From the IMG/VR virus record IMGVR_UViG_3300021375_000006: DNA of 64,000 nucleotides; one strand, given 5' to 3'. Under the pieces are notes generated by a model. The model saw only the letters and a program-made list of their open reading frames with translations. It did not search any database and had not been told where the DNA came from. Origin of the DNA: a virus. Taxonomy: Duplodnaviria; Caudoviricetes. How positions within the stretch are numbered: position 1 is the first letter of the stretch; each line of letters opens with the position of its first letter. Below are positions 24,156 through 54,164 of this stretch, one piece after another. The position numbers and the translations under genes are program-made.

Positions 24156-24743
24156 TCAATCTAAAAATAACTCTTTGAGATTATGTCTTTCAATGATTTC
24201 TATAAGAGCCTTATCATAATTTTTAGCCTCAGCATAGTTTTTATCTAAATAGTTTAAATACTTCTTTTCAGTACGTAATTTATTTAGATATGCAGCTTGG
24301 TAAAGTGCATAATCCGTTACTGATTCTTTCCAATCATCATAGAATGCATGTCCTAGTTGAGTACCATTTGCTGTAGTAGCTCTGGCTCTAGCCTGCTTCA
24401 TACCAAATAGGTTATGGTTTTCTTGATAGATTCTACTTTCCCAATATCCAGTCTCTAAGATGGATTGAGCTAATACAATATGTGGAAATCTAATATTAAG
24501 TTTTTTGATTTCTTCAACAAGAGCCTCTTGTGAGAATATATCTTCAGGCGAGTCTAAGACAAGTAACTCTGTTTCTATTGGTTCATTTAGGGCTTCTTTA
24601 AAGCCATCTTCATGTGCATTAGAAACCATTGAGGTTAGGGCTATATAGCCGATTACAGCTATTCCAATTAAACTAAGATAGTGTTTTCTTTGTGGAACCA
24701 CTTTTCGATATGAAAGAGATTCTTTACAATAGGTGTATAACAT
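24156..24743 (-). CDS. Glucosaminidase (GH73-like peptidoglycan hydrolase) with a membrane anchor
   Basis: FPHIVLAQSILETG and NHNLFGMK motifs, plus an N-terminal hydrophobic helix. Confidence 0.75.
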   Translation of the reverse strand: MLYTYCKESLSYRKVVPQRKHYLSLIGIAVIGYIALTSMVSNAHEDGFKEALNEPIETELLVLDSPEDIFSQEALVEEIKKLNIRFPHIVLAQSILETGYWESRIYQENHNLFGMKQARARATTANGTQLGHAFYDDWKESVTDYALYQAAYLNKLRTEKKYLNYLDKNYAEAKNYDKALIEIIERHNLKELFLD

Positions 24744-31182: not shown

Positions 31183-31791
31183 TTAATATTTAGGTTTTTT
31201 TGCCTTCTTAGTATATATCTTTATGTTATCATACTCCTTCTCGAGAGATTTAACCAGCTTTAGATTAGCCACATCGTCATCGTAGAACTTAAAGTCAGTA
31301 TAACCCATGTTGATATATGTTTCAAATGCCTGTTTCTTTCTGTCAGCAATATTACCTGTAAATCCATGGACATTATCTGAAATAGCAAATATTAAGTCTT
31401 TGTCAATTCTAAATCCAACATGTTCTCTTAGCCACTTGTAAATCATCTCTCTGTCATCTCTAGCAGTTACAATACCGACTGCAATACCCTTCTTATAGTT
31501 TCTTTTGAAAATGTTTAAGTAGTATTCAATCAGCTTACCTGCTTTCATGATTTCAATATCAGAGAAATCAGTAAAGTCTAACTCATGTTGTTTCTTAGCT
31601 TCAAATTCGTTGAATTCTTCTGGAGTTAATGAGAAGCACTTGCCTGTGAAATGGTCACACACTTTAATCTTCGCGTCTGTAATCACTAGAGTGTCATCTA
31701 AGTCAAAGACCACGATCTCTGATTTAGAATAAGGTTTCTCTGTTACAAGAAAAGCCTCGAATGTTTTAATATGTTTCACTTGGCGTAACAA
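31183..31791 (-). CDS. HAD-superfamily phosphatase with a capsid-targeting-like N-terminus (probable GTG start at 31779)
   Basis: VVFDLDDTL, VTAR, FYDDD. Begins (M)KHIKTFEAFLVTE-K. Confidence 0.75.
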   Translation of the reverse strand: MLRQVKHIKTFEAFLVTEKPYSKSEIVVFDLDDTLVITDAKIKVCDHFTGKCFSLTPEEFNEFEAKKQHELDFTDFSDIEIMKAGKLIEYYLNIFKRNYKKGIAVGIVTARDDREMIYKWLREHVGFRIDKDLIFAISDNVHGFTGNIADRKKQAFETYINMGYTDFKFYDDDVANLKLVKSLEKEYDNIKIYTKKAKKPKY

Positions 31792-32503
31792 CTCCTCTTT
31801 TTTGTACTACTTTAGCTGACATTTCATTTGCATATTTAATTGAATGTTCTACATCTTTACTGTTAACATATTCAATTGCAAATGCTGCAACAAAAGTATC
31901 GCCGGCACCAGAAACATCAATAGTCTCTTGTGGTCTAGGGCTTGGGAATAGTTTATCTTGATATTCGGCGCCCTTTGCACCTAGAGTCGTAATAATGCCT
32001 GGATGTTCCAGCTTATTATTATTTATCCTTTCAGATTCATTTAATTTAATAAATGTATAATTAGCCATCATTTTATTAGTTAAAGGTCTCTTACTATCAA
32101 TAATTGATAACGGAGCCATTAAACCAATATCATAGATGTCTTTGTTAGACAAGAAGCCTTTATTATAGTCACTGACTATCACTAGGTCATACCCCTCTAA
32201 GTAGGTTAGGTCTTTATCAAATGTAGAAATCTGCTCTTCACCCTCATCGTATCTGATGAACATGTGGTTAGATTTCTTTTCTACGAATCTTGTTTTTGTA
32301 ATCTGTTCTGATTGAGTCCATAACTCAATATTGGCATCGGGGGCAATAGCCAAGCAATTAGCCATTGTATTGCCTGCCATCCCTGGATTTTCTATAGTTT
32401 CTACAGGAGTAATAACAGGTACTGGCGCTTCAGGGGACAGACGTCCCACATTACCGTATATAAATCTATCGGTACAGCTATCTCCTATAATTAATATTTT
32501 CAT
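31766..32503 (-). CDS. hldA: D-glycero-D-manno-heptose-7-phosphate kinase (HldE/RfaE kinase domain, PfkB family)
   Basis: IIGDSCTDRFIYG, RLSPEAPVPV, SDYNKG, DVSGAGDT. Confidence 0.85.
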   Translation of the reverse strand: MKILIIGDSCTDRFIYGNVGRLSPEAPVPVITPVETIENPGMAGNTMANCLAIAPDANIELWTQSEQITKTRFVEKKSNHMFIRYDEGEEQISTFDKDLTYLEGYDLVIVSDYNKGFLSNKDIYDIGLMAPLSIIDSKRPLTNKMMANYTFIKLNESERINNNKLEHPGIITTLGAKGAEYQDKLFPSPRPQETIDVSGAGDTFVAAFAIEYVNSKDVEHSIKYANEMSAKVVQKRGVVTPSETY

Positions 32504-32865
32504 CCTTGGGAATCTCCTTTGCGAATTCTGTAGCTATCTTCATCGAAGTGTTGTGTTGATACTTCAAATATTTCTGAGCCATCTTCTAGTGCTACTAACT
32601 GATGTGGTTGGCCTCTTTCAATGGTGATACATGCACCTTCTTTTACTATTGTAGAATCTTCTACTGCACCTTCGGTATCAATCCAGATATATTCAAATGA
32701 ACCCTTACCAACATACCAAGACTCTTTCTTAATAATATGATAATGCATTGAGAATCTACTACCCTTCTTATGAAATCTTAGTAATTTTCCACAATACTCT
32801 TCGTCGTTGTGAATCCAAATCTCTTCGCCCCATGCTTTAGGTACTATTTTAGGTTGTACTATCAT
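32500..32865 (-). CDS. Cupin sugar-phosphate isomerase-like protein
   Basis: VPKAWGEEIW, SMHYH..K.E, GQPH, IFEVST cupin motifs. Confidence 0.7.
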   Translation of the reverse strand: MIVQPKIVPKAWGEEIWIHNDEEYCGKLLRFHKKGSRFSMHYHIIKKESWYVGKGSFEYIWIDTEGAVEDSTIVKEGACITIERGQPHQLVALEDGSEIFEVSTQHFDEDSYRIRKGDSQG

Positions 32866-33581
32866 AATTCTTCTATTCTTTTTGCTTTGTCATCAATAAC
32901 CAAGTCAAAGCTGGGTTTTGTTTCTAAACCTGACTCAGACCAACCCACCACTAAGTTATTGTACTTACATCCCCATTCATTGAGTTGTGCCGTTGTCAAA
33001 TTAGTTAAATCTCTTTTTGAATGACCACCTCTAGCTGTCCAATATGTAATATGCCAGCCAGCTTCATATAGTTTATTTATTTTGCTTATATTAGTCGCAT
33101 TAGGTTTAGCATTTTGATATACTCTTTTACCCTCGTAGAAACAAATGGTTTCATCTATATCAACGTATGCCTTCTTTTGATCAGTATTATATAATTTGCT
33201 TTCTAGTACCTCAGTGGTCGAGTAGTCGCCTATTCGATCAAAGAAAACTACTTCACCAGCATGTTCTGCGCCTACGATTTCTTTGCCCTTCCAATCAGAG
33301 CCCACTACCATTACATCTGGTTTGAATTTAGCCACTAGATCAATTAGACCCTGTTTAGTATCAAAGGTCTCTACTAGATCAATATATTGAATGGATTCTA
33401 GAGCGAACTTTCTATCCTCTAGTTTATTATGAGGTCTATCTGGGCCCTTTGCCCTAGCCACCTTTTCGTCTGAGTCAATGCCTACAATAACTTTATCGCC
33501 TAATTCACTGGCAAATTTAAAGAGCTCAAAGTGACCTCTATGTAGAACATCAAAACATCCATTAACCCAAACTCTTTTCAT
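32862..33581 (-). CDS. hldC: Heptose-1-phosphate nucleotidyltransferase (HldE/RfaE domain II) fused to a C-terminal HAD phosphatase domain
   Basis: NGCFDVLHRGH, VGIDSD, VVGSDW, GDYSTT, then YVDIDETI, YWTARG, IDDKA. Confidence 0.8.
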   Translation of the reverse strand: MKRVWVNGCFDVLHRGHFELFKFASELGDKVIVGIDSDEKVARAKGPDRPHNKLEDRKFALESIQYIDLVETFDTKQGLIDLVAKFKPDVMVVGSDWKGKEIVGAEHAGEVVFFDRIGDYSTTEVLESKLYNTDQKKAYVDIDETICFYEGKRVYQNAKPNATNISKINKLYEAGWHITYWTARGGHSKRDLTNLTTAQLNEWGCKYNNLVVGWSESGLETKPSFDLVIDDKAKRIEEL

Positions 33582-33616
33582 ATCTCTGCATTTACAGGGT
33601 TTATATGGTTAAAAAC

Positions 33617-34540
33617 CTAATTGTTTCCTCTAGAACCTGAAGATCTGCTGCGTGAATTACTACTTGAAGAAGAACTAGAACGTCTAGTAGGTGGAGGTGT
33701 TGTAGATCTAACGTTATTAGTACTTCTATTGTTAACGTTATTTGGTACTCTAGGTTTCCAGTTATTGTTTCTTGTATTATTAGGATTTACTCTAATATTA
33801 TTGTTATTATCATTAGGTCTTCTATAGATTCTTACAGTCTCACCATTATCTCTAATGATTACATTATTATCCGGGTTAATTCTAGGATTATTGTATGATC
33901 TTACTGTACGAGTATTATTACTATTAGTTCTACGTCTATTAACATTAGACTCAATTGTAGAATTAGTTCTATTAGAGACTATGCTACTACCTCTTCTACC
34001 ATTTACATAAACGGTATTGGGTCTATTTCTATGTTGCCATGCATAGTTGTTCATTCTCCATCTCCAGTTCCAGTCATTGTAATATCCATTCCAGCCATAG
34101 TAACTATTCCAACCCCAGCCCCAGTGAGCATTGCCCATCCAGTTATTATATCCCCATCTATCATATCCAAATAGTGACCATCTATGTGGTGTGAAACCCC
34201 ATACCCAGTCATTCCACATTTGATCTCTATTCCAGTAGTAGCCATAATAAGGGCTGTTCCAACCATATCTAGTACCTAATAATCTATTATTCCAATCAAA
34301 TGATCTAGGTTGACTTAGAGCATATTGTGCAAAGTCATATCTAAATTGAAAATCTGTTCTTAATCTATTTCTAAATTGAAATTCATTTAGGGTATCAATA
34401 GCTACATCATCTGAAACCACTATATAATTTTCATCATCATATATTGGGTCATAATTAAGTGTTGATACGTGCCAGTTAACTCCACATGATGTTAATAAAA
34501 CTAGTGATAGAATTGTAAGTAATCTTTTAAGTGTTTTCAT
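33617..34540 (-). CDS. Bacteroidota-type lipoprotein with a W/Y/G/N-rich region and a disordered R/S/N tail
   Basis: Lipobox LLTS-C and low-complexity composition. Confidence 0.6.
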   Translation of the reverse strand: MKTLKRLLTILSLVLLTSCGVNWHVSTLNYDPIYDDENYIVVSDDVAIDTLNEFQFRNRLRTDFQFRYDFAQYALSQPRSFDWNNRLLGTRYGWNSPYYGYYWNRDQMWNDWVWGFTPHRWSLFGYDRWGYNNWMGNAHWGWGWNSYYGWNGYYNDWNWRWRMNNYAWQHRNRPNTVYVNGRRGSSIVSNRTNSTIESNVNRRRTNSNNTRTVRSYNNPRINPDNNVIIRDNGETVRIYRRPNDNNNNIRVNPNNTRNNNWKPRVPNNVNNRSTNNVRSTTPPPTRRSSSSSSSNSRSRSSGSRGNN

Positions 34541-34554
34541 ATATTTGTTTTATG

Positions 34555-34878
34555 TTATTTTTCTTTGTATTCCTGAAATGCTTCACTATTTGGTAGATCT
34601 TTCTCTATTTGTAAAGACCATAGTGAGCTATTTGGGACTACGAACTTTCTTCCATGGCCATAAACATAAAACGTAGTTTTCCAAATAGTTTGTCTAACTA
34701 TTCTTGCTTTCTTTGTACCTTTAATATAGACTACGTCATCTATATCAAAATCAGTACCCATCAAAAACTTCATACCGCTAAAAAAGTTGGCTATTGCATC
34801 TTTAAATGCTAAACCAGCTAAAGCAGCGATTGTTAACCAACCCCATTCTCCAATATACTGTGATAATAACTCTTCCAC
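34555..34878 (-). CDS. Minimal MscS-like membrane protein
   Basis: GLAFKDAIANFFSG...FDIDDVVYI...VVPNSSL matches the MscS TM3/beta-domain pattern. Confidence 0.6.
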   Translation of the reverse strand: MEELLSQYIGEWGWLTIAALAGLAFKDAIANFFSGMKFLMGTDFDIDDVVYIKGTKKARIVRQTIWKTTFYVYGHGRKFVVPNSSLWSLQIEKDLPNSEAFQEYKEK

Positions 34879-35372
34879 TATATTAATCCTTTGTTTGTTA
34901 GATTCTGCAGTAAACTGTATTGACTAATCATTACATGTTTTACCGCTTCATCTCTATTCATAAATACAGCTCGGTCTACTTCTTTTAACTGTAGTTGGCC
35001 CTTAGGAATTTCTAATCCTTTCAGACCGATTTCCGCTAGATCTTTTATCTCTACAATATAGTAGTGTACAACCTTGTTATATTTGTACTTTCTACTGGTA
35101 ACTGTAAACGTAAAAGCATCTTTATTGATTAAAGATTTAGGTACTTTAATACCAAACTCTTCTCTAGTCTCTCTGATTGCTGCATCTAAAATTGATTCTC
35201 CTTCATCAATTCCACCCTTTGAAATACCATACGATGCTAGCTTCTTTCTGCCAGTGCTATGTCCTAATAGAACTTTGCCATCATGTACAATGGCCAAACC
35301 TGCAGACCGTCTCTCTTCCAGAAACTTCTTAGCCTCGTTAATATAGTTATCAAAGTTTGCAATTCTTTTCAT
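34878..35372 (-). CDS. NUDIX hydrolase with a capsid-targeting-like N-terminus
   Basis: GGIDEGESILDAAIRETREEFG Nudix box. Starts MKRIANFDNYINE-A. Confidence 0.8.
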   Translation of the reverse strand: MKRIANFDNYINEAKKFLEERRSAGLAIVHDGKVLLGHSTGRKKLASYGISKGGIDEGESILDAAIRETREEFGIKVPKSLINKDAFTFTVTSRKYKYNKVVHYYIVEIKDLAEIGLKGLEIPKGQLQLKEVDRAVFMNRDEAVKHVMISQYSLLQNLTNKGLI

Positions 35373-35662
35373 TATTTACTTTCTTCGTCGATCCTTTTAA
35401 TTTCTTCTTGTAGTTCGTGTATTCTCCATTCAAAGTCGAATAACTCTTGTCTACTTATTCTGTTATTTTTAAAAGATCGTTGTGCTCTCTTGTATTCTTG
35501 CGTTAATCTTTTTAATTCTTTTTGAAGAGAAGATCTAGCCTGGCCCGCTTGACTTGCCGTGACATTAAATTCTTTCTTTCTTGGGTTTGTTGTTCTCTGC
35601 TTGGGTGTAACCACCATATCGAAGTCCGAGAACAATGTTAGGAATTTATCAACGTTGTCCAT
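35372..35662 (-). CDS. Hypothetical coiled-coil protein
   Basis: Intact ORF with a stop/start overlap and an upstream GATATATA motif. Confidence 0.5.
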   Translation of the reverse strand: MDNVDKFLTLFSDFDMVVTPKQRTTNPRKKEFNVTASQAGQARSSLQKELKRLTQEYKRAQRSFKNNRISRQELFDFEWRIHELQEEIKRIDEESK

Positions 35663-35711
35663 TTCTTGAGCGTTTTATTTGAGTAGGTTGCCCCCTACAT
35701 AGTATATATCG

Positions 35712-36311
35712 TTATTTGATAAGAAACTCCCAGAACGAACGCCCAGTAGTATCTTCATTAGGAAAGTCAAACGATAAAGTTCTCTCCTTACCATTTTCAG
35801 TCCAGGTAATAGACTTAACAAAACTAGCAGGTATTCTAGCAGGATCTGAATTAGTTGTCCATTTATCTGAGAAGAATAATTCAATTCTAACTTCAATATC
35901 ATCGTAGATACCTGAAAGGTTTCTCTCGAATCTCTCTAGTGCAGCCCAGGCACCTCTATTTAGTCCCTGGTGTTGTAATGCACAGTTTGCATAACTAAAT
36001 GTTTCTTTTAACCATTTTTCAGAACATGCGAAAGTATTTGCTGGAGCCATGTGCCCCTTATCATATACATTAGCACTATAATCTGAACTAGAAGAACCAT
36101 TTAAACCAGGATAGGCTTTAAATGAAATCCCATCTCTATCATAAGTAGGTGATTCTGGTTTACAGAAGATAGTGTATTCAACAATCATTGGTTGTTGGTA
36201 TTCCTCATTGTATATAGATGTGTATATGTCTGTTTTAATTTCTTTAGTTTGCGCAAAAGCCACAATGTTAAAGAAGATTAAACAAAATATGATTGATATT
36301 AATTTTTTCAT
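35712..36311 (-). CDS. Secreted DNA/RNA non-specific endonuclease (NucA/EndA family)
   Basis: Signal peptide. YDKGHMAPA, TFSYAN, QHQGLNRGAW. Confidence 0.85.
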   Translation of the reverse strand: MKKLISIIFCLIFFNIVAFAQTKEIKTDIYTSIYNEEYQQPMIVEYTIFCKPESPTYDRDGISFKAYPGLNGSSSSDYSANVYDKGHMAPANTFACSEKWLKETFSYANCALQHQGLNRGAWAALERFERNLSGIYDDIEVRIELFFSDKWTTNSDPARIPASFVKSITWTENGKERTLSFDFPNEDTTGRSFWEFLIK

Positions 36312-36532
36312 TTTAATAAAGGTCTTAAATAATTATTAATTTTTGCTAAAACATAAGAAGATTCATTTCTAGTTGGATAACATGCATCCCATAAAGATTG
36401 TTTTGGAAAATCAGGATCGTCTTGTGTTTTAGCCCACTTTTTTGCAGCTTCAAAATCTACAACTGACCAGCCAAACTCTCTTGTAGGAGTGGCTACAAAA
36501 CCTCTCTTAATTTTTCTTATTAGTTTTTTCAT
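36308..36532 (-). CDS. Hypothetical protein
   Basis: Intact ORF in the operon. Confidence 0.45.
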   Translation of the reverse strand: MKKLIRKIKRGFVATPTREFGWSVVDFEAAKKWAKTQDDPDFPKQSLWDACYPTRNESSYVLAKINNYLRPLLK

Positions 36533-36737
36533 CTTTCTTAGTTTTTATTTTTGGTTCGCTAATTATTTTAACGTAACTATCTTTTGCTTTTTTAACACAC
36601 TTTGCACAAAATGGTGTATAATAACCCACTTCATCCGGTTTAGCCCAGTTGCCTGACTTACCGACTGTGTACATTTCTTTATCTGGAAAGTCGCCCAAAC
36701 AATTTGAGCATACTGTCATTCTTACAGCTCTAGGCAT
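36507..36737 (-). CDS. Small Zn-finger-like protein
   Basis: CSNC...CAKC. Confidence 0.45.
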   Translation of the reverse strand: MPRAVRMTVCSNCLGDFPDKEMYTVGKSGNWAKPDEVGYYTPFCAKCVKKAKDSYVKIISEPKIKTKKDEKTNKKN

Positions 36738-37638
36738 CTCTCTGTTCTTTTATCCATTGTAGAACATTAACACTAGGCCTCCACTCTAACATCTGTGTAA
36801 TTAATGATATATCTGCTCTCGATCTTTTCGGTTCTTCTCGCTCTTCGATATGTACAATCTCACCACCGAATTGCTCTGCTATTTCTAGAATTTCAGTCTC
36901 TTCACCATAGGCAACGTTCCAGATCGGCATTGACTCAAATCCACCATTAGGTCTGGTTAGTGCTGCAAAACAGGCTTCTACTACATCACCAACATAGACA
37001 AAGTCTCTGGTTTGTCTGCCATCACCTGTGACAGTGATAGGTTGATATGATTCAAACTGTTTCTTAAAGATAGGAATGGCACTAACATAGCCCACGTCGT
37101 CTGGTTGACCTTCTCCAAATACATTAAAGAATCTTAAGGCTGCACATTGAGTATCTATAGTATGATATTGTTCTAATAGAGATTCCATCTCTAGTTTATA
37201 CTCAGCATACGGAGACATTGGTGCTGGAGTAGCCTGTTCGTTGAATGGTATATCTTGGCTATCACCGTAGACTGCGGCCGTTGAGGCTGCAACGATAGAT
37301 TTGGCACCTCTTTCTGTTGCCCATCTAAATACTCTTTCTGAACCACCGAATATACCTCTAAAATACTTCTCCCAATCTTCTAGTGACTCTTGTACTGAAA
37401 CCGGTGAAGCTAGATGTAATACATAGTCTATATTTTTAATATCTGGCATTGGACCGGCTGCAATATCACATTCATAAACCTTTAATCCAGCTGGTAGATT
37501 ACCAGACGGTAGAGTTAAATTCTCTAGTTTACCTGTGTAAAAATTATCAAGTACTGTAACCTGCCATCCACGTTCTAGTGCTTGCCAAACCGCGTGATGT
37601 CCAATAAATCCGGCGCCGCCTGTTATTACTATATGCAT
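36730..37638 (-). CDS. NAD-dependent nucleotide-sugar epimerase/dehydratase (GalE-like extended SDR)
   Basis: TGGAGFIG, ASTAAVYG, PYAEYK, RFFNVFG, TRDFVYV. Confidence 0.85.
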   Translation of the reverse strand: MHIVITGGAGFIGHHAVWQALERGWQVTVLDNFYTGKLENLTLPSGNLPAGLKVYECDIAAGPMPDIKNIDYVLHLASPVSVQESLEDWEKYFRGIFGGSERVFRWATERGAKSIVAASTAAVYGDSQDIPFNEQATPAPMSPYAEYKLEMESLLEQYHTIDTQCAALRFFNVFGEGQPDDVGYVSAIPIFKKQFESYQPITVTGDGRQTRDFVYVGDVVEACFAALTRPNGGFESMPIWNVAYGEETEILEIAEQFGGEIVHIEEREEPKRSRADISLITQMLEWRPSVNVLQWIKEQRDA

Positions 37639-37644
37639 TTTTTA

Positions 37645-37890
37645 TTATTTAGTTCTTCTATTATATAGCTCATCTAAGAGCATTTTGTAAAGTCTTTCAA
37701 CGGAAATAAAAGATTCGCTTAGTTCATTAGTTCTAAATACTGACATATCATATTTACGATTAAGTAACTGGCCCCATGTTTGACCATACTTATCATATTG
37801 ATCTCCCCATTTAAGAGACCAATTAAGATATTCTGCATTTAGCCGTGACCATGATAAATCTAGCTTTTCCATCTTCATACTTCTATCCAA
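37645..37890 (-). CDS. Hypothetical protein
   Basis: Intact ORF in the operon. Confidence 0.45.
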   Translation of the reverse strand: MDRSMKMEKLDLSWSRLNAEYLNWSLKWGDQYDKYGQTWGQLLNRKYDMSVFRTNELSESFISVERLYKMLLDELYNRRTK

Positions 37891-37893
37891 TAA

Positions 37894-38760
37894 TTATACA
37901 AGCCATTCTCTCAAAGTTTCAAAAACCTTTTCAGGAGTAATTGCTTTATGACATTCAAATTCTCTATCAGTATCAGCATGTTTTGGACACCAATACCAAT
38001 TGCTACCATCAAATTTTTCTGTATGCCAACATCCATGACAGACAGATTCATCTGTTATTCTTTTATAGTCCTCTATTGATAGATCAAATTCATTCCAATC
38101 TTTTGTAAAATTAGAAATCATTACTACAGGTTTACCTAAAGCATGTGCTACCCAAGCCAAACCAGACGAAGGTCCAATATAAAACTTAGAATGCCATATC
38201 CAATTAATAACCTCTTTTAAATCTACAAAAACCTTATGGGCCTCTTCAGGCAATCCATTCCAATGTGGAGGTTTACCAAATAGTTCATGGTTTGATAAAC
38301 AAACAGGTGTTGTACCTGTAGTTTTTATCATCTTACATAATTCATTCCAATTAGTAGCAAGAGTTTGACCTTCTCGACCATCTGTAGAATTCCAATATTT
38401 TAATTGGGATGTACTATGAACACCAAACGTAACATAAGGTTGTTCCATTGGCCTATCCTTTAATATACGATCTATTTTAGGTCTAATATATGCTGGGTTT
38501 TCAAAACCTAATTGCTCTGCATAACCAGCTTGAATAGCTTTATCAAATTTATACCATATTCTAATAATATCTTCCTCTTGCCAACCATCTAACGTATCAG
38601 TAAAAAGAATACTTGGATAACTCCACTTAAATAAATCTTTAAAAATAAGATTAGTCTTAACTGTAACTGGAGTATCATGCTGTTCAGACCATAGTTGAAC
38701 ATAGGGTAATGCAGCAACCAGATCTCCTAATGAATGGCTATTTAAGTCAATTAGTTTCAT
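37894..38760 (-). CDS. Aah/TibC-like (BAHT-family) protein O-heptosyltransferase
   Basis: SLGD, HSTSQLKYWN, FYIGPSSGLAWVAHALGKPVVMIS and the iron-finger CHGCW...WCPKH...FEC. Confidence 0.75.
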   Translation of the reverse strand: MKLIDLNSHSLGDLVAALPYVQLWSEQHDTPVTVKTNLIFKDLFKWSYPSILFTDTLDGWQEEDIIRIWYKFDKAIQAGYAEQLGFENPAYIRPKIDRILKDRPMEQPYVTFGVHSTSQLKYWNSTDGREGQTLATNWNELCKMIKTTGTTPVCLSNHELFGKPPHWNGLPEEAHKVFVDLKEVINWIWHSKFYIGPSSGLAWVAHALGKPVVMISNFTKDWNEFDLSIEDYKRITDESVCHGCWHTEKFDGSNWYWCPKHADTDREFECHKAITPEKVFETLREWLV

Positions 38761-39580
38761 GTAAATAGTTTAAGTAATCTTGTAAACCTTCTTCCAATTG
38801 AAATTCAGGTCTCCATTTTGGCATCCATTTACCTCTATCACTACATGTGAAATACTGATAGCCTTTAGGTATCTTTTCTTCTGGGTGATATTTATATGGT
38901 ATATCCATGATTTCCATCTTCTCTTCAAACTCTCTAGCCTGACCACTACCCACTTCAAACCAATTACCCCACAGATCATCGACAAAGGCTCTAGAGCCAT
39001 TCTTAAATGCAAAGATATTAGCTGATACTACATCTTTAATATAGACAAAATCTCTAAGTGGTTTGTTTCTAAATAGTTTTACTTCTTCTCCAGCTTGGTG
39101 TCTTTTAAACATCTGATATGCAACTGATGCCATTCTACCTTTATCCTCTTCACCTGGACCATATACATTAAAGTATCTTAATGCAATTCCACCGTTCGAG
39201 ATTACATAACCCTCGCCAGCATATTTTGACCAACCATATAGATTAGCTGGATATTCTTTATTTGTACCATAGTTTGCAGCAGAAGAAGAGTAGATTAGTT
39301 TTACCTGATTTTGTTTACATAGATCAGTCAGATATTTTGTCACCTCGTAATTAAGTAACATCATATAATTAACATCTTGCTCTAGTGTATCTGAACATGC
39401 ACCGACATGAAAACAAGCATCTAGTTTTAGTGCAAAGATTTCATTTAGGTTTAACTTCCAGTTATCTTTTAGATCTCTCTCTTCAAATGTAACTACTTCC
39501 CAACCCTGTTTTTCTAATTCTGCCTTTAGGCTTCTACCAATAAATCCTTCCGTACCTGTAACTAATGCTTTCATATCCAA
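38747..39580 (-). CDS. hldD: ADP-L-glycero-D-manno-heptose 6-epimerase
   Basis: FHVGACSDT, YSSSAANYG, NLYGWSK, RYFNVYGPGEEDKGRMASV, RDFVYIKDV. Confidence 0.85.
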   Translation of the reverse strand: MDMKALVTGTEGFIGRSLKAELEKQGWEVVTFEERDLKDNWKLNLNEIFALKLDACFHVGACSDTLEQDVNYMMLLNYEVTKYLTDLCKQNQVKLIYSSSAANYGTNKEYPANLYGWSKYAGEGYVISNGGIALRYFNVYGPGEEDKGRMASVAYQMFKRHQAGEEVKLFRNKPLRDFVYIKDVVSANIFAFKNGSRAFVDDLWGNWFEVGSGQAREFEEKMEIMDIPYKYHPEEKIPKGYQYFTCSDRGKWMPKWRPEFQLEEGLQDYLNYLHETN

Positions 39581-41847
39581 TTATCTTGTTTTAATTTTTG
39601 CCAAACATATTCTGGTGTAATTGTTTTTGTACATTCAAAATGTCTAGGTGTATCTTTGTGTTCTGGACACCAGTTCCAGTCACCTCTATCAAATACACGA
39701 TAGGTCCAACAGCCTGAACATACATTTGTATTAATAATTCTAATAGCTGGTTCAAATTCAATAAAAGACCAAGTAAATCCACTAATTAAACAGACTTTTA
39801 CGTCTAATGCCCATGCTAACCAGCTTAAACCAGAACCAATACCAATAAAATAACCACTGGCTCTCATCTGTTGACCTACTTTAAAAAGAGAAGATTCAGA
39901 ACCATCTGATACTCTTTCTATATTCTGTAAATGAGTAGTTTCTTTTGAACAATAATGTACATCCCAGTTTTGTGTTTTAAATTCATTTATTAAATCTTGC
40001 CAACCAGTTGGATGTTGCCATTCTTTAGCACCAGCAGTTCCTCGAGGGCCAATACAAACTGATGAATTATCTTTATCTTCTATTAAAGTATTTTGATAAA
40101 ATATAGGTGCCATCTTAGGTTTACGTTCCATATAAAAGATTCCTAAACGATCAGCTGCAATCGCACCAATCGGAACTGTTCTCCAATCTCTCTTATGCTT
40201 ATGTTTTACTGAAGGTTGATTATCTTCTTGATAAACACCTAAAGTCTGCCAATTCTGTGGCCAATATTCATGTGGAGAAACTGGTATAATACCTATCTTC
40301 CTATAATAACTCCAATCAAATAAATCTTGATGGTATAACCTAACATAAATAGTATCGTAATCTCTTTGTTGTTTTAGTTCTTCTACTTGACCCATCCAAC
40401 TAATTGTATCTCCTAATGAACTAGACTCGAATTGAATACCTATTTCCCTTTCTTCTGGTTTTAATACCTGTACTATTTGATTAGTTTTTTTCTTAACAAT
40501 ACGGCATTCCCATCTTTCATACCAATCCATTGCGTAGCGAGACCATAAATTTTCAAATAGATCTACCTTTAGATACATTTTATCTTTTAGCCAAAATTGA
40601 GCCTCGTATGATTTATCTTCAGGTGCCCAATCACAATGTAGTTCTGGTCCTGATCTATGATAAAATCTACAAATAGGTTTATTACCAACTCTATCTATAG
40701 TATATCTAAATTGCCTAAAGAAAGAATACCAATTACCATCAGGCCATAGTCGCTCTGTTTGATTAATAAGTATATTTGTCCATTCGTTTAAATCATACTC
40801 TGTAGTTTTAACTTGAGTGGCATCATTAAAAACCAACATACTAAATCTTTGAAAATCATTACCTACTTTACTAGGAATTGAGCTTAAATTATCATTAGCC
40901 CAAGCTACGATTATATTATTATGTGGTTGGTTAAATTTAATATTTTTACTTGGATATAAAAAATTAATTTTATCCTTTTGTTGTTGTGTAATCTCAGTTT
41001 CAGTATAAACAGAGAACTCTTTTATATCATTTAACCATTCACATGCCTGGATAGCAGAAGTAATATGCCAAACATCTTCATATAAAAATAAAGTATTATG
41101 TGGTTTTGATGATTCGATAAGAGGTTTTGCATTAATATTAAATTCTGCATGTTCTTGTTCTGTCATACTACCAGAGTCAGAACCTGGCCTTCTAACGTAC
41201 GTATATAAATTTCTAGGTATATGTACATGTTTACCTCTTGCTGTATTGTAGAATAAAAAGAATGTATCTGTGGATGTTTTGCACTCTTTAACAATAGGTA
41301 ATTTACTAACATCTGGTTTACGCATTGCTCGACCATGGCCAAACATTTTTTGAGTATTTCTATTTGAATAGATTTCCCAAAATTCTGAATTATGTCTAAA
41401 ATTCCACTCTAGGGCAAGATCGTCTGCTGGTTGTACTAATGACCATTGTTCTAAATCTCCATCAGGTGTTGTTTGAAAATAATCTGAAAATATAGAATAG
41501 ACTTGTGGATACGCTTGAAAATGATTATCATATATTTCAAATAATTCTTTATCTAAAATATCATCCGTATCTAAATCAAAATAGTAATCATATTCTAAAT
41601 GTTGAAATGTATTTTGGTATAAATAAAGTTCTCTTCTATTTTCTAAATGATAATAAATAATTCTTTTATCATTTAATTCTTCAACTCTCTTTCTTAATCT
41701 ACGTCTAAACTCAGGATCTTTAGATCCATCATCAGCTACGATTAATAACCAATCATTATGTGTTTGTTTTAATACATTATCGAATGTCAAGTCGATATGT
41801 TCGTCTGGATTATTATGAAAACTGGCTACTGCTAAAAACCTACCCAT
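39571..41847 (-). CDS. GT2-like domain fused to an Aah/TibC-like heptosyltransferase domain
   Basis: N-terminal ADDGS and DLDTDD. C-terminal SSLGDTISW, FIGIGSGLSWLAWAL, CSGCW...WCPEH...HFECTKTIT. Confidence 0.75.
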   Translation of the reverse strand: MGRFLAVASFHNNPDEHIDLTFDNVLKQTHNDWLLIVADDGSKDPEFRRRLRKRVEELNDKRIIYYHLENRRELYLYQNTFQHLEYDYYFDLDTDDILDKELFEIYDNHFQAYPQVYSIFSDYFQTTPDGDLEQWSLVQPADDLALEWNFRHNSEFWEIYSNRNTQKMFGHGRAMRKPDVSKLPIVKECKTSTDTFFLFYNTARGKHVHIPRNLYTYVRRPGSDSGSMTEQEHAEFNINAKPLIESSKPHNTLFLYEDVWHITSAIQACEWLNDIKEFSVYTETEITQQQKDKINFLYPSKNIKFNQPHNNIIVAWANDNLSSIPSKVGNDFQRFSMLVFNDATQVKTTEYDLNEWTNILINQTERLWPDGNWYSFFRQFRYTIDRVGNKPICRFYHRSGPELHCDWAPEDKSYEAQFWLKDKMYLKVDLFENLWSRYAMDWYERWECRIVKKKTNQIVQVLKPEEREIGIQFESSSLGDTISWMGQVEELKQQRDYDTIYVRLYHQDLFDWSYYRKIGIIPVSPHEYWPQNWQTLGVYQEDNQPSVKHKHKRDWRTVPIGAIAADRLGIFYMERKPKMAPIFYQNTLIEDKDNSSVCIGPRGTAGAKEWQHPTGWQDLINEFKTQNWDVHYCSKETTHLQNIERVSDGSESSLFKVGQQMRASGYFIGIGSGLSWLAWALDVKVCLISGFTWSFIEFEPAIRIINTNVCSGCWTYRVFDRGDWNWCPEHKDTPRHFECTKTITPEYVWQKLKQDNWI

Positions 41848-42862
41848 TTCTTACTTCCATTATTTTATTAAACACTTGATCTGGACCTGGTTGACACTTA
41901 AATTCAGAATACCCTTCTAAACAAGATGGATAATAAGGTAAGTTATTTATAGACTTCCAATGTTTAACTGAATATTTAGGATCTGTAGCACAAAATATTT
42001 TACAATCACTACCTACAAAATGAAATTTATAGTCTTGTGATGCATATCTATATGGTGCAGTCTTTCTTGGATCGATAGATGCGCCTATTTGAAATATATG
42101 AGAATCTGTACACCCTGCTAAGTGGATTGGACCAGCATCAAAAGAAACTAATCCAAATGCATTATTTAAAACATGGTACAATTCAGAAATTGGTCTAAAT
42201 ACAGATGCTTCTTCTTGTTTACCTGGTGTATCATCACCATAATTATAGTCAATACCATTTAGATCTACTAGCCCTTTTACAATTTCACCTTCTGAAGTCC
42301 CCTCTCTATGAGCTTTACCGATCAAGACTATCTTCATATCGGTATGTTCTTTAATTAGATCAACTAGTCTTTGCCAGTGTTCTAATGGCCAAGTTCTATT
42401 AGGCCAATTCTCAGTAGGGTGGATAACAATACAGTTATCGTCAATCTTTAATGAGTCTTCAGTTTGTTCTTCTGGAAAATAGTCATAGTGTAAATCTTCA
42501 GGGTAAAGTGAAATACCTAGGCCTAAAGCGTGGTGTTGTCTCGCTTCAAAATTACTTAATTTAATTTGTACTCTACTATCTCTCTCCTGGTCTTGCCACA
42601 TGTTTCTATTTCCTTTAATCCAATGATTATAGGTTTCAAAAATCTCAGTATAGCCTTCAGGATCTTCATCTGTATATTTTAGTAATTTATCAACATAGGG
42701 AGATCTTTCGTAAATATCTGTGCGTCTACACATTACATCTACTTTATGCCCATAAGACTCCGCTGCTTTACGTACAGTTGGAGTAGAGCATATTGTGTCG
42801 CCCAATGCAGGGCAACTAACTTTAATTAAAACTTTAGAACTATTTCCAGGTAGGTCTATCAC
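41840..42862 (-). CDS. GT9-family heptosyltransferase-like protein with four C-terminal Cys
   Basis: ALGDTICSTP, VIHP, RTWPLEHW, SFDAGPIHLA, CKIFC...C...C. Confidence 0.7.
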   Translation of the reverse strand: MIDLPGNSSKVLIKVSCPALGDTICSTPTVRKAAESYGHKVDVMCRRTDIYERSPYVDKLLKYTDEDPEGYTEIFETYNHWIKGNRNMWQDQERDSRVQIKLSNFEARQHHALGLGISLYPEDLHYDYFPEEQTEDSLKIDDNCIVIHPTENWPNRTWPLEHWQRLVDLIKEHTDMKIVLIGKAHREGTSEGEIVKGLVDLNGIDYNYGDDTPGKQEEASVFRPISELYHVLNNAFGLVSFDAGPIHLAGCTDSHIFQIGASIDPRKTAPYRYASQDYKFHFVGSDCKIFCATDPKYSVKHWKSINNLPYYPSCLEGYSEFKCQPGPDQVFNKIMEVRNG

Positions 42863-43257
42863 TTATATTCTTCATAAGACTTCTCTTCGACTAGAAGAGA
42901 GCCAGTTAAAAGATTGATCTTTTTCTTCACCTCCGCTCTCTCGTCGTTAGTAAAATAAACAGATCTTGCTAATTCAACAAAGTCATCTTCGAAATCTTTC
43001 TTAGACTCATGTACTCTAATGTGGTCTTCTATATTCCATAACGTTTGATTAATGTCCTGTAAGTCTTTATGTAACTTTTTCATCTCTGGACGATCTAGTT
43101 CACTTAGAGCCTCGTACATATTATGAACAATAGGTGCTAATACATCGTACTCTGTTTGTACGTTTTTTAATTTGGCTTCATCTTTAATTTGTTCTAATTT
43201 GATAGCCAAAATAGTGAGTTTGTCTAGAATCTCACCGTTTGATACTTCTATTTTCAT
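42859..43257 (-). CDS. DUF6165-like protein (usually found beside glycosyltransferases)
   Basis: EVSNGEILDKLTILAIK...LWNIED...ELARSVYFTNDER...EEKSY (family recalled, unverified). Confidence 0.65.
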   Translation of the reverse strand: MKIEVSNGEILDKLTILAIKLEQIKDEAKLKNVQTEYDVLAPIVHNMYEALSELDRPEMKKLHKDLQDINQTLWNIEDHIRVHESKKDFEDDFVELARSVYFTNDERAEVKKKINLLTGSLLVEEKSYEEYK

Positions 43258-43268
43258 CTATTAATTAT

Positions 43269-44231
43269 TTAAAGTGTTAATAACATATTTATTAACTCAG
43301 TCTGTGGTTGAACATCATCTTTATCAGTTCTAACCTGTCCATGAGTTAAAAGCCCTTGAACTTTACCAGAGCAAGCTAGATCTGAGTATTCAAAAGCTCT
43401 ACCTAAATCAGCAGGATTTGGTTTTGCTATACCATAAGGTGTAGGTCCAACTCCTAATTTCTTTAGTTCATCAATTATACCAACATGCAAATCAATACCA
43501 TGCTTCTCTGATAATAATATGAGTAAAGCTTTTAAAGATTCAATTTGCTTTGCAGAATATCTATGGAAGTAGAGTTGACCCTTATATTTATGATCTAATG
43601 TACATACTTGATCTGGGTGTACCTCTGCATTATACCATGTGTAATATTTACCATCCTTTTGTGTTAATCTACCAGCAGAACAAAGCTCAATTGAGATTGA
43701 GCCTCTATGCATTGTACCAGATTTGGTTTTACCTAAGTGGTAACCCCAATATTCATCTTTGAATGCCTGTAGAATTCTACCATCATATTTAGTTTCATCT
43801 ACACCAGAAGCAGGTAGTCCACCAATTACATAATGAGTTCCTATTCTACCTCTTTGGTCTCTACCCCATTGGTCGATAACTTTATATGGATTATGTCTTC
43901 CTGCTGTATGGTGAATGAATATCCACTTTTTTGCTGTTTCTTGTTTCACATATTCACCATCTGGTAATGGATATTGTTCAATCCATGTTGCACCAGTTGT
44001 AATATCTGTATCTGCTTCTAATTCATGTGGATTTAATCCTAGCTTCTTCCATGTCATTGGGCCTATAATACCATCTCCCTTCAAGCCATTATCAATTTGA
44101 AATGCTTTTACAGCATCTCTAGTTCTAGGTCCAAATACTCCATCTACTCTAAGCCCAAGCCTTTCTTGTATATCCTCAACTAAATCACCAGAATGACCCT
44201 GTTTTAATACGTATTTACTTTGCTTTGACAT
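43269..44231 (-). CDS. N-acetylmuramoyl-L-alanine amidase with a peptidoglycan-binding domain (endolysin-like)
   Basis: VDGVFGPRT..AVKAFQ...GDGIIGPMTW PG-binding domain. FIHHTAG, SISIEL, HGQV..DKDD. Confidence 0.8.
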   Translation of the reverse strand: MSKQSKYVLKQGHSGDLVEDIQERLGLRVDGVFGPRTRDAVKAFQIDNGLKGDGIIGPMTWKKLGLNPHELEADTDITTGATWIEQYPLPDGEYVKQETAKKWIFIHHTAGRHNPYKVIDQWGRDQRGRIGTHYVIGGLPASGVDETKYDGRILQAFKDEYWGYHLGKTKSGTMHRGSISIELCSAGRLTQKDGKYYTWYNAEVHPDQVCTLDHKYKGQLYFHRYSAKQIESLKALLILLSEKHGIDLHVGIIDELKKLGVGPTPYGIAKPNPADLGRAFEYSDLACSGKVQGLLTHGQVRTDKDDVQPQTELINMLLTL

Positions 44232-46410: not shown

Positions 46411-46770
46411 TTACCACTTACCTAATGGACATACAGATCCAGGTGAAAGTGCTTTAGCTGCTAATCTACAACCACAACCCCTCGTTGGTGCGCCAGTAAC
46501 TACATGAATACCCTCTTTATGTGGATTACATGTACCACCATCTCTCATATCACATGAATGACAGATATTTAATCTTGTTTCTGACTCATGTTTTAATTCT
46601 GGCTCTAAATCTACAAAATGAGATTTAACTAAATTACCCCATCCAGTTAAAATCTGTTCAATTTGACTGGGTTTTTTCTTTTGTGCAGGTGTTAAAGGTG
46701 CAGGTTTATATACATCTTTTTTGACATTACCCACAAAACCATACTTATTTGTTTTTCTTTCTATTGCCAT
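46411..46770 (-). CDS. Cys-rich small phage protein
   Basis: CHSC...C...GCGC...CPLGKW. Confidence 0.55.
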   Translation of the reverse strand: MAIERKTNKYGFVGNVKKDVYKPAPLTPAQKKKPSQIEQILTGWGNLVKSHFVDLEPELKHESETRLNICHSCDMRDGGTCNPHKEGIHVVTGAPTRGCGCRLAAKALSPGSVCPLGKW

Positions 46771-48529: not shown

Positions 48530-49360
48530 TTATACTGAATTTTGGTCCGTTGTTTCATTATCATACCAAAACCTATCCATCCAAGAATAAACATTATCTG
48601 AATCCTTGTCATTATGTTGTTCAATCGCATTATAGGTTGTTGTAAAAACATTAAGGTCTTTAAATTGATGGTTAATCCAAACGTCAATAGGTCCTTTAAT
48701 TGGAGTTTTTTTGCGTAGTTTACGAACACCTCGATCACTTAATAAATAGCCACTAAGCCACCATACGCCATTCTTTAATTTTTCTAAATTTACAGAATAT
48801 TTTTCTGCTGTATAACCTACAGTTGCTGGTAAAATAGAGAAGTAAACCATATCCCAATCTTCTGGTAATTCTTTAAAAACAGAATTAAATGTCTTTGAAA
48901 ATCCAACTTCAAATGTTATATCATCTTCAAGAAAAAGAGCTGCCTTGCCTTTAGATTCTATAAATTTATCCCACATTGCAATATGTCCAAGTGAAATAGC
49001 TATCTCTGATTTAGAACATGATAGAATTTGTTTTCTATAATGATTAATATTATCACTAAATGCCGGATCTGGTTCTATTGTATATTGCCAATTAAAATCA
49101 TAGTCTTTAAGTACTAGACTCTTATCCCAATCGTCTACATCATCTCCCCAAAAAGCCTTTTGCCAAGTTACAAAATCAGCCAGAGTTTGATCTCCATCTG
49201 TTTTAACTCGATCAAGCTGTTTTATTAAGGCCTCTTTTCGATCTTTCCTATGCTCTAAATTTAACACATAGACCTGATCTATATTTTTAGTATTTAATAG
49301 AGTGTTTTTACCAAATAGACCTGCTATTCTTTTTATCAGAGTTGTAGTCCCTCTACTCAT
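48530..49360 (-). CDS. GT25-family glycosyltransferase
   Basis: YVLNLEHRKDR, EIAISLGH, FLEDD, GYLLS..G. Confidence 0.75.
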   Translation of the reverse strand: MSRGTTTLIKRIAGLFGKNTLLNTKNIDQVYVLNLEHRKDRKEALIKQLDRVKTDGDQTLADFVTWQKAFWGDDVDDWDKSLVLKDYDFNWQYTIEPDPAFSDNINHYRKQILSCSKSEIAISLGHIAMWDKFIESKGKAALFLEDDITFEVGFSKTFNSVFKELPEDWDMVYFSILPATVGYTAEKYSVNLEKLKNGVWWLSGYLLSDRGVRKLRKKTPIKGPIDVWINHQFKDLNVFTTTYNAIEQHNDKDSDNVYSWMDRFWYDNETTDQNSV

Positions 49361-49530: not shown

Positions 49531-49899
49531 TTAATTATATAATGGAGCCTTCTTTTGTTTCTTTAAGTATTGTCTATAATTAACAACAGCTCTACTTAGG
49601 ATTTCCATCCTCTGTTCTGGGTCCATGACCATTGTTCTAGTTTTTGTGTAGTAAGTATTACCATCAAAAGAACTAGTCCATGGATGTAGTTTAGTAGGAT
49701 TTAACTGGTAGATTGATCTGTTCTTATAGATCGTACCATAAGAAGTCTTGTGAGTCTTCGTATAGGCTCTACGGATATAACCATTCTCATAAGAGAGATA
49801 GTCACAGTTTGAGATTGGGTCATGATAACATACTGTACCATGATCTGCTTGTGCTTGAGAAGTTAATTCAATACACTTAAGTGCTTGTAGTTTATTCAT
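49531..49899 (-). CDS. Hypothetical protein
   Basis: Intact ORF. Confidence 0.55.
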   Translation of the reverse strand: MNKLQALKCIELTSQAQADHGTVCYHDPISNCDYLSYENGYIRRAYTKTHKTSYGTIYKNRSIYQLNPTKLHPWTSSFDGNTYYTKTRTMVMDPEQRMEILSRAVVNYRQYLKKQKKAPLYN

Positions 49900-53954: not shown

Positions 53955-54164
53955 CTAATATTTTGTTGCTATTTTTTGATATGCTGCAAAAAGATGGTCC
54001 GCTGCCTTCTCTACTTCACCTCTTGCTTCCTTCTCTATTTTTAATACTGGGTGTTGAATTAAAGTTTCATCAATTAAACCTAATACTATATTTAAAGTAT
54101 GTACTACCTCATGATAATGAAAATCATCTAATTCTAAGTCTCCTATTTTTTTCTTGCTACTCAC
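53955..54164 (-). CDS. Hypothetical protein
   Basis: Intact ORF in the operon. Confidence 0.45.
   Translation of the reverse strand: MSSKKKIGDLELDDFHYHEVVHTLNIVLGLIDETLIQHPVLKIEKEARGEVEKAADHLFAAYQKIATKY

Follow-up and report, generated by a model that had tools for sequence, protein, structure and literature searches.

A phage gene cluster with predicted ADP-heptose synthesis enzymes and TibC/Aah-like glycosyltransferases, and the association of TibC-like genes with Ser/Thr-rich collagen-like genes

The 64,000-nucleotide stretch analysed here, referred to as the window, comes from the IMG/VR virus record IMGVR_UViG_3300021375_000006 (Duplodnaviria; Caudoviricetes) and belongs to a marine jumbo phage. 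Positions 31766-43257 hold a run of minus-strand genes whose stop and start codons overlap in most cases, and which encode predicted enzymes of ADP-heptose synthesis together with two glycosyltransferase domains related to TibC and Aah. The run includes a PfkB kinase of HldE/HldA type (31766-32503, 245 amino acids (aa), TIGR02198), a proposed heptose-7-phosphate 1-kinase; a cupin with a metal site (32500-32865, 121 aa, Cupin_2); and a 239-aa fusion (32862-33581) of an HldC-type adenylyltransferase (residues 1-128, TIGR02199) with a minimal HAD domain recognized by its motifs (residues 134-239). Further along lie a GalE-like NAD-dependent sugar-nucleotide 4-epimerase (36730-37638; PF01370, TIGR01179), a short TibC/Aah-like glycosyltransferase of 288 aa (37894-38760, TIGR04414), an HldD-like ADP-heptose 6-epimerase (38747-39580, TIGR02197) whose gene overlaps both TibC-like genes, and a 758-aa fusion (39571-41847; PF00535, TIGR04414) with an N-terminal GT2 domain, an unassigned middle part and a C-terminal TibC/Aah-like domain. 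A divergent GT9 glycosyltransferase (41840-42862, PF01075) and a DUF6165 protein (42859-43257, PF19662) complete the run. Profile searches place every component that the first-pass annotation had listed where it had put them, on the minus strand. That annotation had listed them as lying within 11.5 kb. The run is not continuous, as five seemingly unrelated minus-strand genes at 33617-36311 separate a donor block from a transferase block. Their products are an unknown protein of 307 aa, a mechanosensitive-channel beta-domain-like fragment of 107 aa, a NUDIX hydrolase, a coiled-coil-like protein of 96 aa and a DNA/RNA non-specific endonuclease. Of these, the NUDIX hydrolase may have ADP-sugars as substrates. 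A DNA-level search of a phage collection with the window returns short conserved patches and nothing longer, and an exact 50-mer taken from it has no match among viral contigs.

The donor block resembles bacterial ADP-heptose synthesis. The kinase has the HldE kinase-domain model TIGR02198 as its top NCBIfam match (110 bits, cut-off 345) and carries the GAGD motif. It also matches phrog_8133 at 1.7e-70, and its N-terminus matches the Burkholderia heptose-7-phosphate kinase 4e84 (6.5e-12). In the fusion protein at 32862-33581, which matches phrog_7878 and phrog_1238, the N-terminal part has the HldE adenylyltransferase-domain model TIGR02199 as its top match (107 bits, cut-off 181.5), and the TagD-type cytidylyltransferase model scores 74 bits. 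The C-terminal ~110 aa contain HAD motifs I-III (DIDET...TARGG...K..DD). This mini-HAD domain matches the 134-aa capsule phosphatase-like protein 9iqw at 3e-9 and TIGR01689 weakly; it is not a GmhB orthologue, and we propose that it takes the GmhB role. The HldD-like protein scores 192 bits with TIGR02197 (cut-off 274.6), its top four PDB matches are all ADP-L-glycero-D-manno-heptose 6-epimerases (8.9e-30 to 1.8e-26), and it keeps the Ser/Tyr/Lys motifs SSAANYG and YGWSK. An HldD-type C6 epimerase is sensible only on a heptose, which speaks against a hexose pathway. The second short-chain dehydrogenase/reductase (SDR), at 36730-37638, proves to be GalE-like, not an HldD; it matches PF01370 at 1.3e-46, and its top match is TIGR01179 galE at 139 bits. 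This GalE-like epimerase may supply a UDP-sugar to the GT2 domain. Overlapping the kinase gene is that of a HAD-superfamily protein (31183-31791, minus strand) with weak Pfam matches to Acid_phosphat_B and DUF2608 (E about 1e-3), perhaps an extra sugar phosphatase.

The first-pass annotation called this synthesis self-contained. Four of the five steps can be assigned by homology, but no GmhA is found, so the term depends on the cupin or on the host. No GmhA/SIS domain appears in the open reading frames (ORFs) of the window scanned with Pfam and NCBIfam, some ORFs of at least 100 aa (e.g. 46411-46770 and 49531-49899) lying outside that scan, and none appears in the complete genome of P-SSM2, which has the same cassette. 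The cupin matches Cupin_2 and scores 41.2 with the WbuC-like cupin model, just below the cut-off of 42. Its metal ligands are intact (HxH..E..H), and homologues 75-85% identical to it across marine metagenomes are often automatically named "mannose-6-phosphate isomerase-like". Its AlphaFold model (predicted local distance difference test score, pLDDT, 90) was compared with Swiss-Prot models, where the top 17 matches are the phosphomannose isomerase (PMI) cupin domains of ManC/AlgA/XanB, with template modelling (TM) scores of 0.77-0.83 and root-mean-square deviations of 1.3-3.6 Å. In the PDB, the 112-aa archaeal PMI 7zvy matches the model over its whole length. PMI enzymes convert a ketose phosphate to a manno-configured aldose phosphate. 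With this chemistry, it is a reasonable inference from the modelled fold that the cupin may convert sedoheptulose-7-phosphate to D-glycero-D-manno-heptose-7-phosphate and thus stand in for GmhA. Three complete phage genomes of 317-322 kb with TibC-like genes have neither this cupin nor a close HldD, and so have no bearing on the idea of GmhA replacement.

The two TibC/Aah-like domains are recognized by the autotransporter heptosyltransferase model TIGR04414 (hepto_Aah_TibC) at 175.4 bits (E 1.6e-51) for the 288-aa protein and 170.3 bits (E 6e-50) for residues about 435-753 of the 758-aa protein. This is the best family by far for both, as the first-pass annotation had assigned them, but both scores stay below the cut-off of 200 bits. 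Against TibC in the PDB (4RAP/4RB4), E-values are 3.5e-29 and 2.6e-31, respectively. The GT2 domain of the longer protein matches PF00535 at 9e-9. The AlphaFold model of the 288-aa protein has a pLDDT of 83.5, and in a Foldseek search its first 21 matches are TibC chains (E 6e-18; TM 0.74-0.77, with 0.76 for the first), followed by WaaF and WaaC. The residues that define TibC, taken from its structure paper (PMC4358343), can be traced in both proteins. The catalytic base Asp-110 corresponds to D13 in the 288-aa protein and D480 in the 758-aa protein, the beta-phosphate contacts Thr-226/Lys-230 to T117/K121 and T604/K608, and the heptose-O4 contact Trp-305 to W203 and W676. The iron-finger residues Cys-339/342/358/370 align with C241/C244/C258/C270 and C710/C713/C727/C739, and both four-Cys fingers are predicted to bind iron. 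In an alignment of 18 family members, the Asp, the Thr, Lys and Trp contacts and the four Cys are invariant. These comparisons of sequence and structure establish the family assignment and the conservation of the catalytic residues.

The residue that governs donor stereochemistry follows Aah. Pro-300 gives TibC its specificity for the D,D-heptose, the P300S mutant of TibC uses both donors, and Aah, with Ser at this position, accepts ADP-L,D-heptose (PMC4358343). The 288-aa protein has S198 here and the 758-aa protein has Gly, in keeping with the overlap of the HldD-like gene with both TibC-like genes. Heptosylation of Ser with ADP-heptose as donor is a predicted activity of these domains. We place both proteins in a short branch of phage type that is distinct from, but related to, the bacterial autotransporter heptosyltransferases (BAHT), and do not count them as strict members of that family. 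Homologues of ~294 aa, at ~50% identity to the 288-aa protein, number in the hundreds in metagenomes, and an alignment-based scan finds at least 575 TibC-like relatives in IMG/VR, whereas the 288-aa sequence alone as query matched no viral contig. No autotransporter domain of the AIDA-I/TibA acceptor type occurs in ~60 scanned window ORFs (~50 with Pfam, the rest with NCBIfam/PHROGs).

The remaining two genes of the transferase block recur with TibC-like genes elsewhere. The GT9 protein scores 37.9 bits with PF01075 (cut-off 22), covering profile positions 83-160 only, and matches heptosyltransferase I at 2.6e-7; a PDB sequence search with it gave no match. It is proposed to be a chain-extending heptosyltransferase. 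GT9-like genes are found in 35 of the best 80 TibC-like viral loci. The DUF6165 protein scores 55.5 bits with PF19662 (cut-off 27); this family is present in 34 of the same 80 loci, where its start codon usually overlaps the TibC-like stop codon, and its clusters in the ESM Atlas are mostly viral (Uroviricota). Complex prediction with the TibC-like domain (residues 430-758) and DUF6165 gives a score of 0.00, which speaks neither for nor against binding.

The main pointer to an acceptor comes from gene neighbourhoods. For the best 80 of the at least 575 TibC-like loci in IMG/VR, 10 kb on each side was analysed. A collagen-like ORF was defined by at least eight consecutive Gly-X-Y triplets, and its repeat was counted as Ser/Thr-rich when Ser plus Thr reached a fraction of at least 0.45, the maximum possible being 0.67. 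The control consists of 119 viral stretches found with the composition-neutral DNA pattern (GGN N6)x10, 118 of them with a collagen-like ORF. A collagen-like ORF lies within 10 kb in 47 of the 80 TibC-like loci, often only 1-700 bp from the TibC-like gene. The repeat is Ser/Thr-rich in 40 of these 47 loci versus 8 of the 118 control loci (Fisher p=4e-23). With loci clustered at 70% TibC identity the proportion is 16/19 (p=2e-12), and at 50% identity it is 5/6 (p=3e-5), against the same control. In the TibC-linked collagen-like ORFs, GTS makes up 44% and GSS 37% of triplets, and the median proline content is 0. In the reverse direction, searching whole records, a TibC-like gene is present in two of seven records with Ser/Thr-rich collagens, including the sole complete one, and in none of seven large records with ordinary collagens; the numbers are small but agree in direction. 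Comparative genomics thus establishes a link between TibC-like and Ser/Thr-rich collagen-like genes, and the co-occurrence with Ser-rich collagens across phages that the first-pass annotation had named as a check is borne out, also after dereplication. The test covers collagen-like fibres, as distinct from the other Ser/Thr-rich fibre genes at 5-18 kb of the window.

This link also bears on whether the transferases modify DNA or another non-protein molecule. They would then glycosylate modified bases of the phage DNA as protection against host restriction, with a heptose nucleotide as donor. Phage DNA glycosyltransferases also have the GT-B fold, jumbo phages often modify their DNA, and the genes between the two blocks include one for a nuclease and one for a NUDIX protein. 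However, a protein O-heptosyltransferase, whose substrate-binding iron finger is conserved here, gives the best matches in both sequence and structure, base-hydroxymethylation genes are not seen among the scanned ORFs, and the association with collagen-like genes would be left without explanation. DNA glycosylation was rated unlikely, and the explanation as a whole appears highly improbable.

Within the window, the best candidate acceptor is a collagen-like tail-fibre protein of 1291 aa (9446-13321, minus strand), assigned to PHROG tail-fibre families with E to 4e-134. Its translation contains ~780 residues of Gly-X-Y, mostly GSS/GTS, with GSS at 43% and GTS at 10% of triplets. A second candidate is a 624-aa protein (1402-3276, minus strand) that matches the Pfam families Collagen and Trypsin_2, the latter as a trypsin-like domain; its collagen stretch, which is short and Ser/Thr-rich (fraction 0.50 in the repeat), covers residues 112-177. 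The pairing is also found in a cultured virus. In Microcystis phage Mel-JY01 (PP395634.1), a GSS/GTS collagen ORF lies ~1.7 kb upstream of a gene for a 1226-aa FkbM/TibC-like fusion. The corresponding frame of more than 1000 aa (L006:2-3052, plus strand), just upstream of a 'structural protein', is missed in GenBank, where the record instead has an opposite-strand ORF at 739-2298 and a short one at 2519-3052. A related 310-kb phage contig (L207) brings together, within 20 kb, HldD, a short TibC-like gene, a GT4+TibC-like fusion, cupin-nucleotidyltransferase-kinase genes and a giant protein with Pro-Thr/Ser-Thr (PT/ST) linkers. This 3106-aa protein, whose start is at L207:18573-20363 (plus strand), contains long Pro-Thr/Pro-Ser linker repeats (TPSVTPTNSV...) and is another, mucin-like candidate acceptor.

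We consider it probable, with some reservation, that the phage O-glycosylates its virion fibres with ADP-heptose of its own making. The scheme that we infer, from donor and acceptor to the cupin reaction and glycan extension, would run as follows. Sedoheptulose-7-phosphate would be converted to D-glycero-D-manno-heptose-7-phosphate by the PMI-like cupin or else by a host enzyme. The PfkB kinase would phosphorylate this product at C1, the mini-HAD domain would take off the 7-phosphate, and the HldC-like domain would form ADP-D,D-heptose, which the HldD-like enzyme would epimerise to ADP-L,D-heptose. In the host cytoplasm, the two TibC/Aah-like domains would put heptose on Ser/Thr of the proline-free GSS/GTS collagen triplets. 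The GT9 and GT2 domains, the latter with a UDP-sugar provided through the GalE-like epimerase, would probably lengthen the glycan, and DUF6165 would act as a conserved accessory protein. Donor synthesis is supported because four of its five steps are matched by homology and the HldD-like gene overlaps both TibC-like genes. Together with the collagen co-occurrence, these points lend support to the first-pass proposal that the phage makes its donor and heptosylates its own Ser/Thr-rich fibres.

Several observations weigh against this scheme. A Ser/Thr-rich collagen is found within 10 kb in just 16 of 39 dereplicated TibC-like clusters, so that other acceptors must exist, and the loci of related phages are not independent. 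The GSS fibre at 9446-13321 is ~25 kb from the transferases, a distance that, in a jumbo phage, means little on its own. All equivalog NCBIfam scores (TIGR02197/02198/02199 and TIGR04414) fall under their curated cut-offs, making the proteins concerned divergent members of their families. The pathway in the window is without a GmhA homologue; the evidence for the cupin in that place is fold similarity alone, and a PDB fold search does not discriminate, with oxalate decarboxylase, quercetinase, PMI, lyxose isomerase, CapF and KdgF equal, so that a consistent PMI signal comes only from the Swiss-Prot models. In TibC, Arg-286 contacts adenine N1 and confers ADP specificity (PMC4358343). At this column the 288-aa protein has Val, and the 758-aa protein has lost the position in a deletion; the column varies across the phage family, so that the nucleotide part of the donor is uncertain. 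The N-terminal beta-barrel of TibC (residues 1-97) is needed for activity on TibA, and its deletion inactivates the enzyme (PMC4358343). The 288-aa protein begins at TibC residue 98-100 and has no such barrel; the 758-aa protein aligns only from residue 63 onward. The beta-hairpin thumb of TibC, with its hydrophobic tip Phe-265/Val-266, is needed for the dodecamer (PMC4358343); the tip is not conserved and reads Pro-His in the 288-aa protein, which makes a dodecamer doubtful.

Some of these points would equally suit a phage that glycosylates its own proteins with a different acceptor or a different nucleotide sugar. The acceptor could then be one of the fibres at 5111-9424, 13340-15475 and 15510-18203, a PT-linker protein or a capsid decoration. 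The other fibre genes of the window encode 25-27% Ser+Thr, the giant PT/ST-linker protein sits beside the cluster on L207, and the adenine-contacting Arg-286 is lost, as noted. Heptose synthesis genes are near TibC-like genes in just 2-4 of the 80 loci and are absent from three complete jumbo phages with TibC-like genes, the 317-322 kb genomes without cupin or close HldD; most such phages would depend on host ADP-heptose, if heptose is the donor. Hosts with heptose in their lipopolysaccharide (LPS) could indeed supply it to phages without the cassette. Three points favour heptose and collagen-like fibres: the contacts to heptose O4 and the beta-phosphate (Trp, Thr, Lys) do not vary within the family, the ends of the HldD-like gene lie within the two TibC-like genes, and the collagen-like ORFs beside TibC-like genes are specifically GSS/GTS-rich. 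A different acceptor or sugar is unlikely in our estimate.

The favoured scheme, self-supplied heptosylation of virion fibres, also touches a long-standing question in cyanophage genomics. By tblastn and phmmer, the donor genes correspond at 45-50% amino-acid identity to a five-gene cassette of T4-like cyanophages, among them P-SSM2 (PSSM2_309-313), S-CAM1, S-CAM3, S-SM2, S-SSM7 and P-TIM68. The cupin is present only in 35 cyanophage or marine virus records and always beside the cassette. The function of these cyanophage "LPS genes" has been open since 2005, when a role in LPS was proposed for P-SSM2 (Sullivan 2005, PMC1079782), and the co-occurrence of T4-GC 304, 305, 307 and 308 was noted in 2010 (PMC3037559). 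Two PHROG names in this set look wrong: phrog_1238 "phosphoheptose isomerase" is a minimal HAD phosphatase domain, and phrog_7851 "cysteine dioxygenase" is a PMI-like cupin. RefSeq annotations of cyanophages have taken over both names. A variant of the cassette on two ENA contigs of 22.6 and 64.8 kb (L209 and L210) adds an RmlC-like dTDP-sugar isomerase, two further SDRs, a CmcI-type methyltransferase, GT1 and GT2, which suggests that the heptoses of some phages are modified, perhaps to deoxy or methylated forms. In P-SSM2 and S-CAM1, the immediate neighbour of the cassette is a gene for a Nol-like carbamoyltransferase, and a NodU-like carbamoyltransferase is encoded in the window (54157-55992, minus strand, 173 bits), so that the glycan may be carbamoylated.

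The role proposed for P-SSM2 amounts to remodelling of the host surface. Phage-made ADP-heptose and the GT9 and TibC-like enzymes would modify host LPS or lipooligosaccharide, capsule or surface proteins, and so block superinfection or change the envelope. GT9 is classically an LPS-core family, more than half of the TibC-like clusters left after dereplication are without a Ser/Thr-rich collagen in the surrounding 10 kb, and the window encodes envelope-directed proteins with a sorting domain of the type IX secretion system (T9SS). One of these, at 63372-63947 (minus strand), has a T9SS type A sorting domain (TIGR04183, 27.5 bits, cut-off 23). This domain points to a host in Bacteroidota, and its sequence implies that the phage protein would be exported through the host T9SS. 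A protein with a T9SS domain, 83% identical, is encoded on the 248,233-bp contig CBFHJJ010000001.1 (L211), which is binned in a metagenome-assembled genome (MAG) of Flavobacteriaceae and may be a phage contig of jumbo-genome size binned into a bacterial MAG. L211 carries no TibC-like gene and is thus a poor proxy for this cluster. In a sample of 101 genomes from the MAG's family, every HldC score stays below the cut-off, the best being 81 bits. This is in line with a host that makes no ADP-heptose, which would explain a pathway carried by the phage. With the T9SS domain and this HldC survey, the first-pass argument that ADP-heptose is reported absent from the LPS of several Bacteroidota holds in part; the host assignment is indirect.

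The same survey counts against surface remodelling. Without a recognisable ADP-heptose adenylyltransferase in the sampled genomes of the likely host family, LPS cores that accept heptose are not expected there. TibC-type enzymes are, moreover, cytoplasmic protein glycosyltransferases, the cassette of P-SSM2 is flanked by two tail-fibre genes, and the pairing of TibC-like with GSS/GTS collagen genes is hard to account for if the host surface is the target. We regard this explanation as improbable. As for habitat, the same DNA is found in seawater and marine metagenomes of many studies. Contigs from four metatranscriptome libraries, one of them DNase-treated, cover most of the cluster at 90-100% identity, which suggests that it is transcribed, although DNA carry-over is possible in metatranscriptomes.

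Some other genes of the window, all on the minus strand, are also of note. A 217-aa glycosyltransferase with a DXD region (4396-5049; PF04488, 2.5e-12) and a weaker match to the TcdA/TcdB catalytic domain is encoded between fibre genes and is, from its sequence, a further candidate for fibre glycosylation. A GT25-family glycosyltransferase is encoded at 48530-49360 (PF01755, 3.8e-13); this family includes the animal collagen galactosyltransferases. A Zeta-toxin/AAA_33-like kinase is found at 18606-19349. An endo-beta-N-acetylglucosaminidase (24156-24743) and a lysin with peptidoglycan-binding and amidase_2 domains (43269-44231) are the two cell-wall hydrolases in the window.

A broader hypothesis can be put forward tentatively, and we hold it to be possible rather than probable. 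In a large and so far unrecognised class of proline-free GSS/GTS phage collagens, served by the phage-specific TibC/Aah branch with DUF6165, heptosylated Ser/Thr would replace hydroxyproline. Phages of hosts without ADP-heptose would carry a GmhA-independent pathway with a PMI-type cupin as isomerase, and the cyanophage "LPS genes" would serve virion glycosylation, not host LPS synthesis. New here are a nearly complete phage donor pathway coupled to transferases, the link to the cyanophage cassette, the hypothesis of a cupin in place of GmhA, and a cultured phage with the pairing: Mel-JY01, in culture, has the same TibC-like gene and GSS/GTS collagen. Full-text literature searches found no paper linking TibC-like enzymes or heptose to phage particles or collagen-like proteins, and none that reports heptose or a BAHT-type enzyme for a virus particle. 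If the favoured scheme of fibre heptosylation is right, a family known only from a small number of adhesin systems in enterobacteria would be in broad use among phages, with at least 575 relatives in IMG/VR, and the collagen-like fibres of phage particles would bear heptose, a sugar of bacterial type. This could alter how the fibres fold, how stable they are, how they bind receptors and resist proteases, and how grazers or immune systems recognise them. The long-unexplained heptose cassette of cyanophages would gain a function, and a non-orthologous replacement of GmhA by a cupin would be suggested.

Comparison with known systems shows where the phage genes follow precedent and where they depart from it. 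Bacterial ADP-heptose synthesis proceeds through GmhA, HldE (or HldA and HldC), GmhB and HldD, and the phage has divergent but recognisable homologues, their motifs intact, for four of these five steps, in one-to-one order. Unlike the bacterial pathway, the phage has a PMI-like cupin in the fifth slot instead of a SIS-type GmhA, a minimal HAD of ~110 aa rather than GmhB, and a kinase ~70 residues shorter than the HldE kinase domain; its product would serve protein glycosylation, not the LPS core. The cyanophage cassette (T4-GC 304-308) is similar in holding an adenylyltransferase, a PfkB kinase, a mini-HAD, a cupin and an HldD-like epimerase, with a carbamoyltransferase nearby in both. In the window, the adenylyltransferase and mini-HAD are fused, the epimerase is placed with the transferases, and the cassette is coupled to TibC-like enzymes, none of which tblastn found in the cyanophage records.

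The closest relatives of the transferases are TibC and Aah. They share with the phage proteins the GT-B core and its Asp, Thr/Lys and Trp residues and the four-Cys iron finger, and Aah shares the small residue at the Pro-300 position. TibC and Aah work in the cytoplasm, where they hyperglycosylate the Ser residues of long fibrous repeat proteins, and the same is predicted for the phage enzymes. The phage genes differ in being often fused with GT2, GT4 or FkbM domains and paired with DUF6165, and their acceptor is likely a collagen-like triple-helix protein, whereas that of TibC and Aah is a beta-helical autotransporter. Decoration of virus particles by virus-encoded enzymes has its own precedents. 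In mycobacteriophages, structural proteins of the particle are decorated by glycosyltransferases and sugar-nucleotide enzymes that the phage itself encodes. Giant viruses, whose glycans are the subject of a review (PMC9614988), offer a parallel in which the enzymes are again encoded by the virus. Both systems use other glycosyltransferase families, sugars and acceptor sequences.

For the collagen-like acceptor, the nearest parallels are cellular. BclA of Bacillus anthracis is O-glycosylated on Thr of its collagen triplets (PMC6222408), and in the proline-poor cuticle collagen of a vent worm, according to Mann 1996 (pmid 8757292) as cited in PMC11923368, glycosylated Thr occupies stabilising positions. 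Both are Gly-X-Y proteins with O-glycans on Thr within the triplets, as proposed here for the phage fibre. They carry a rhamnose/anthrose oligosaccharide and galactose, respectively, attached by other transferases in other organisms, with neither heptose nor a phage involved. Glycosylated Thr stabilises the worm collagen in the place of hydroxyproline, and with these two precedents a role of the proposed phage glycan in triple-helix stability is plausible.

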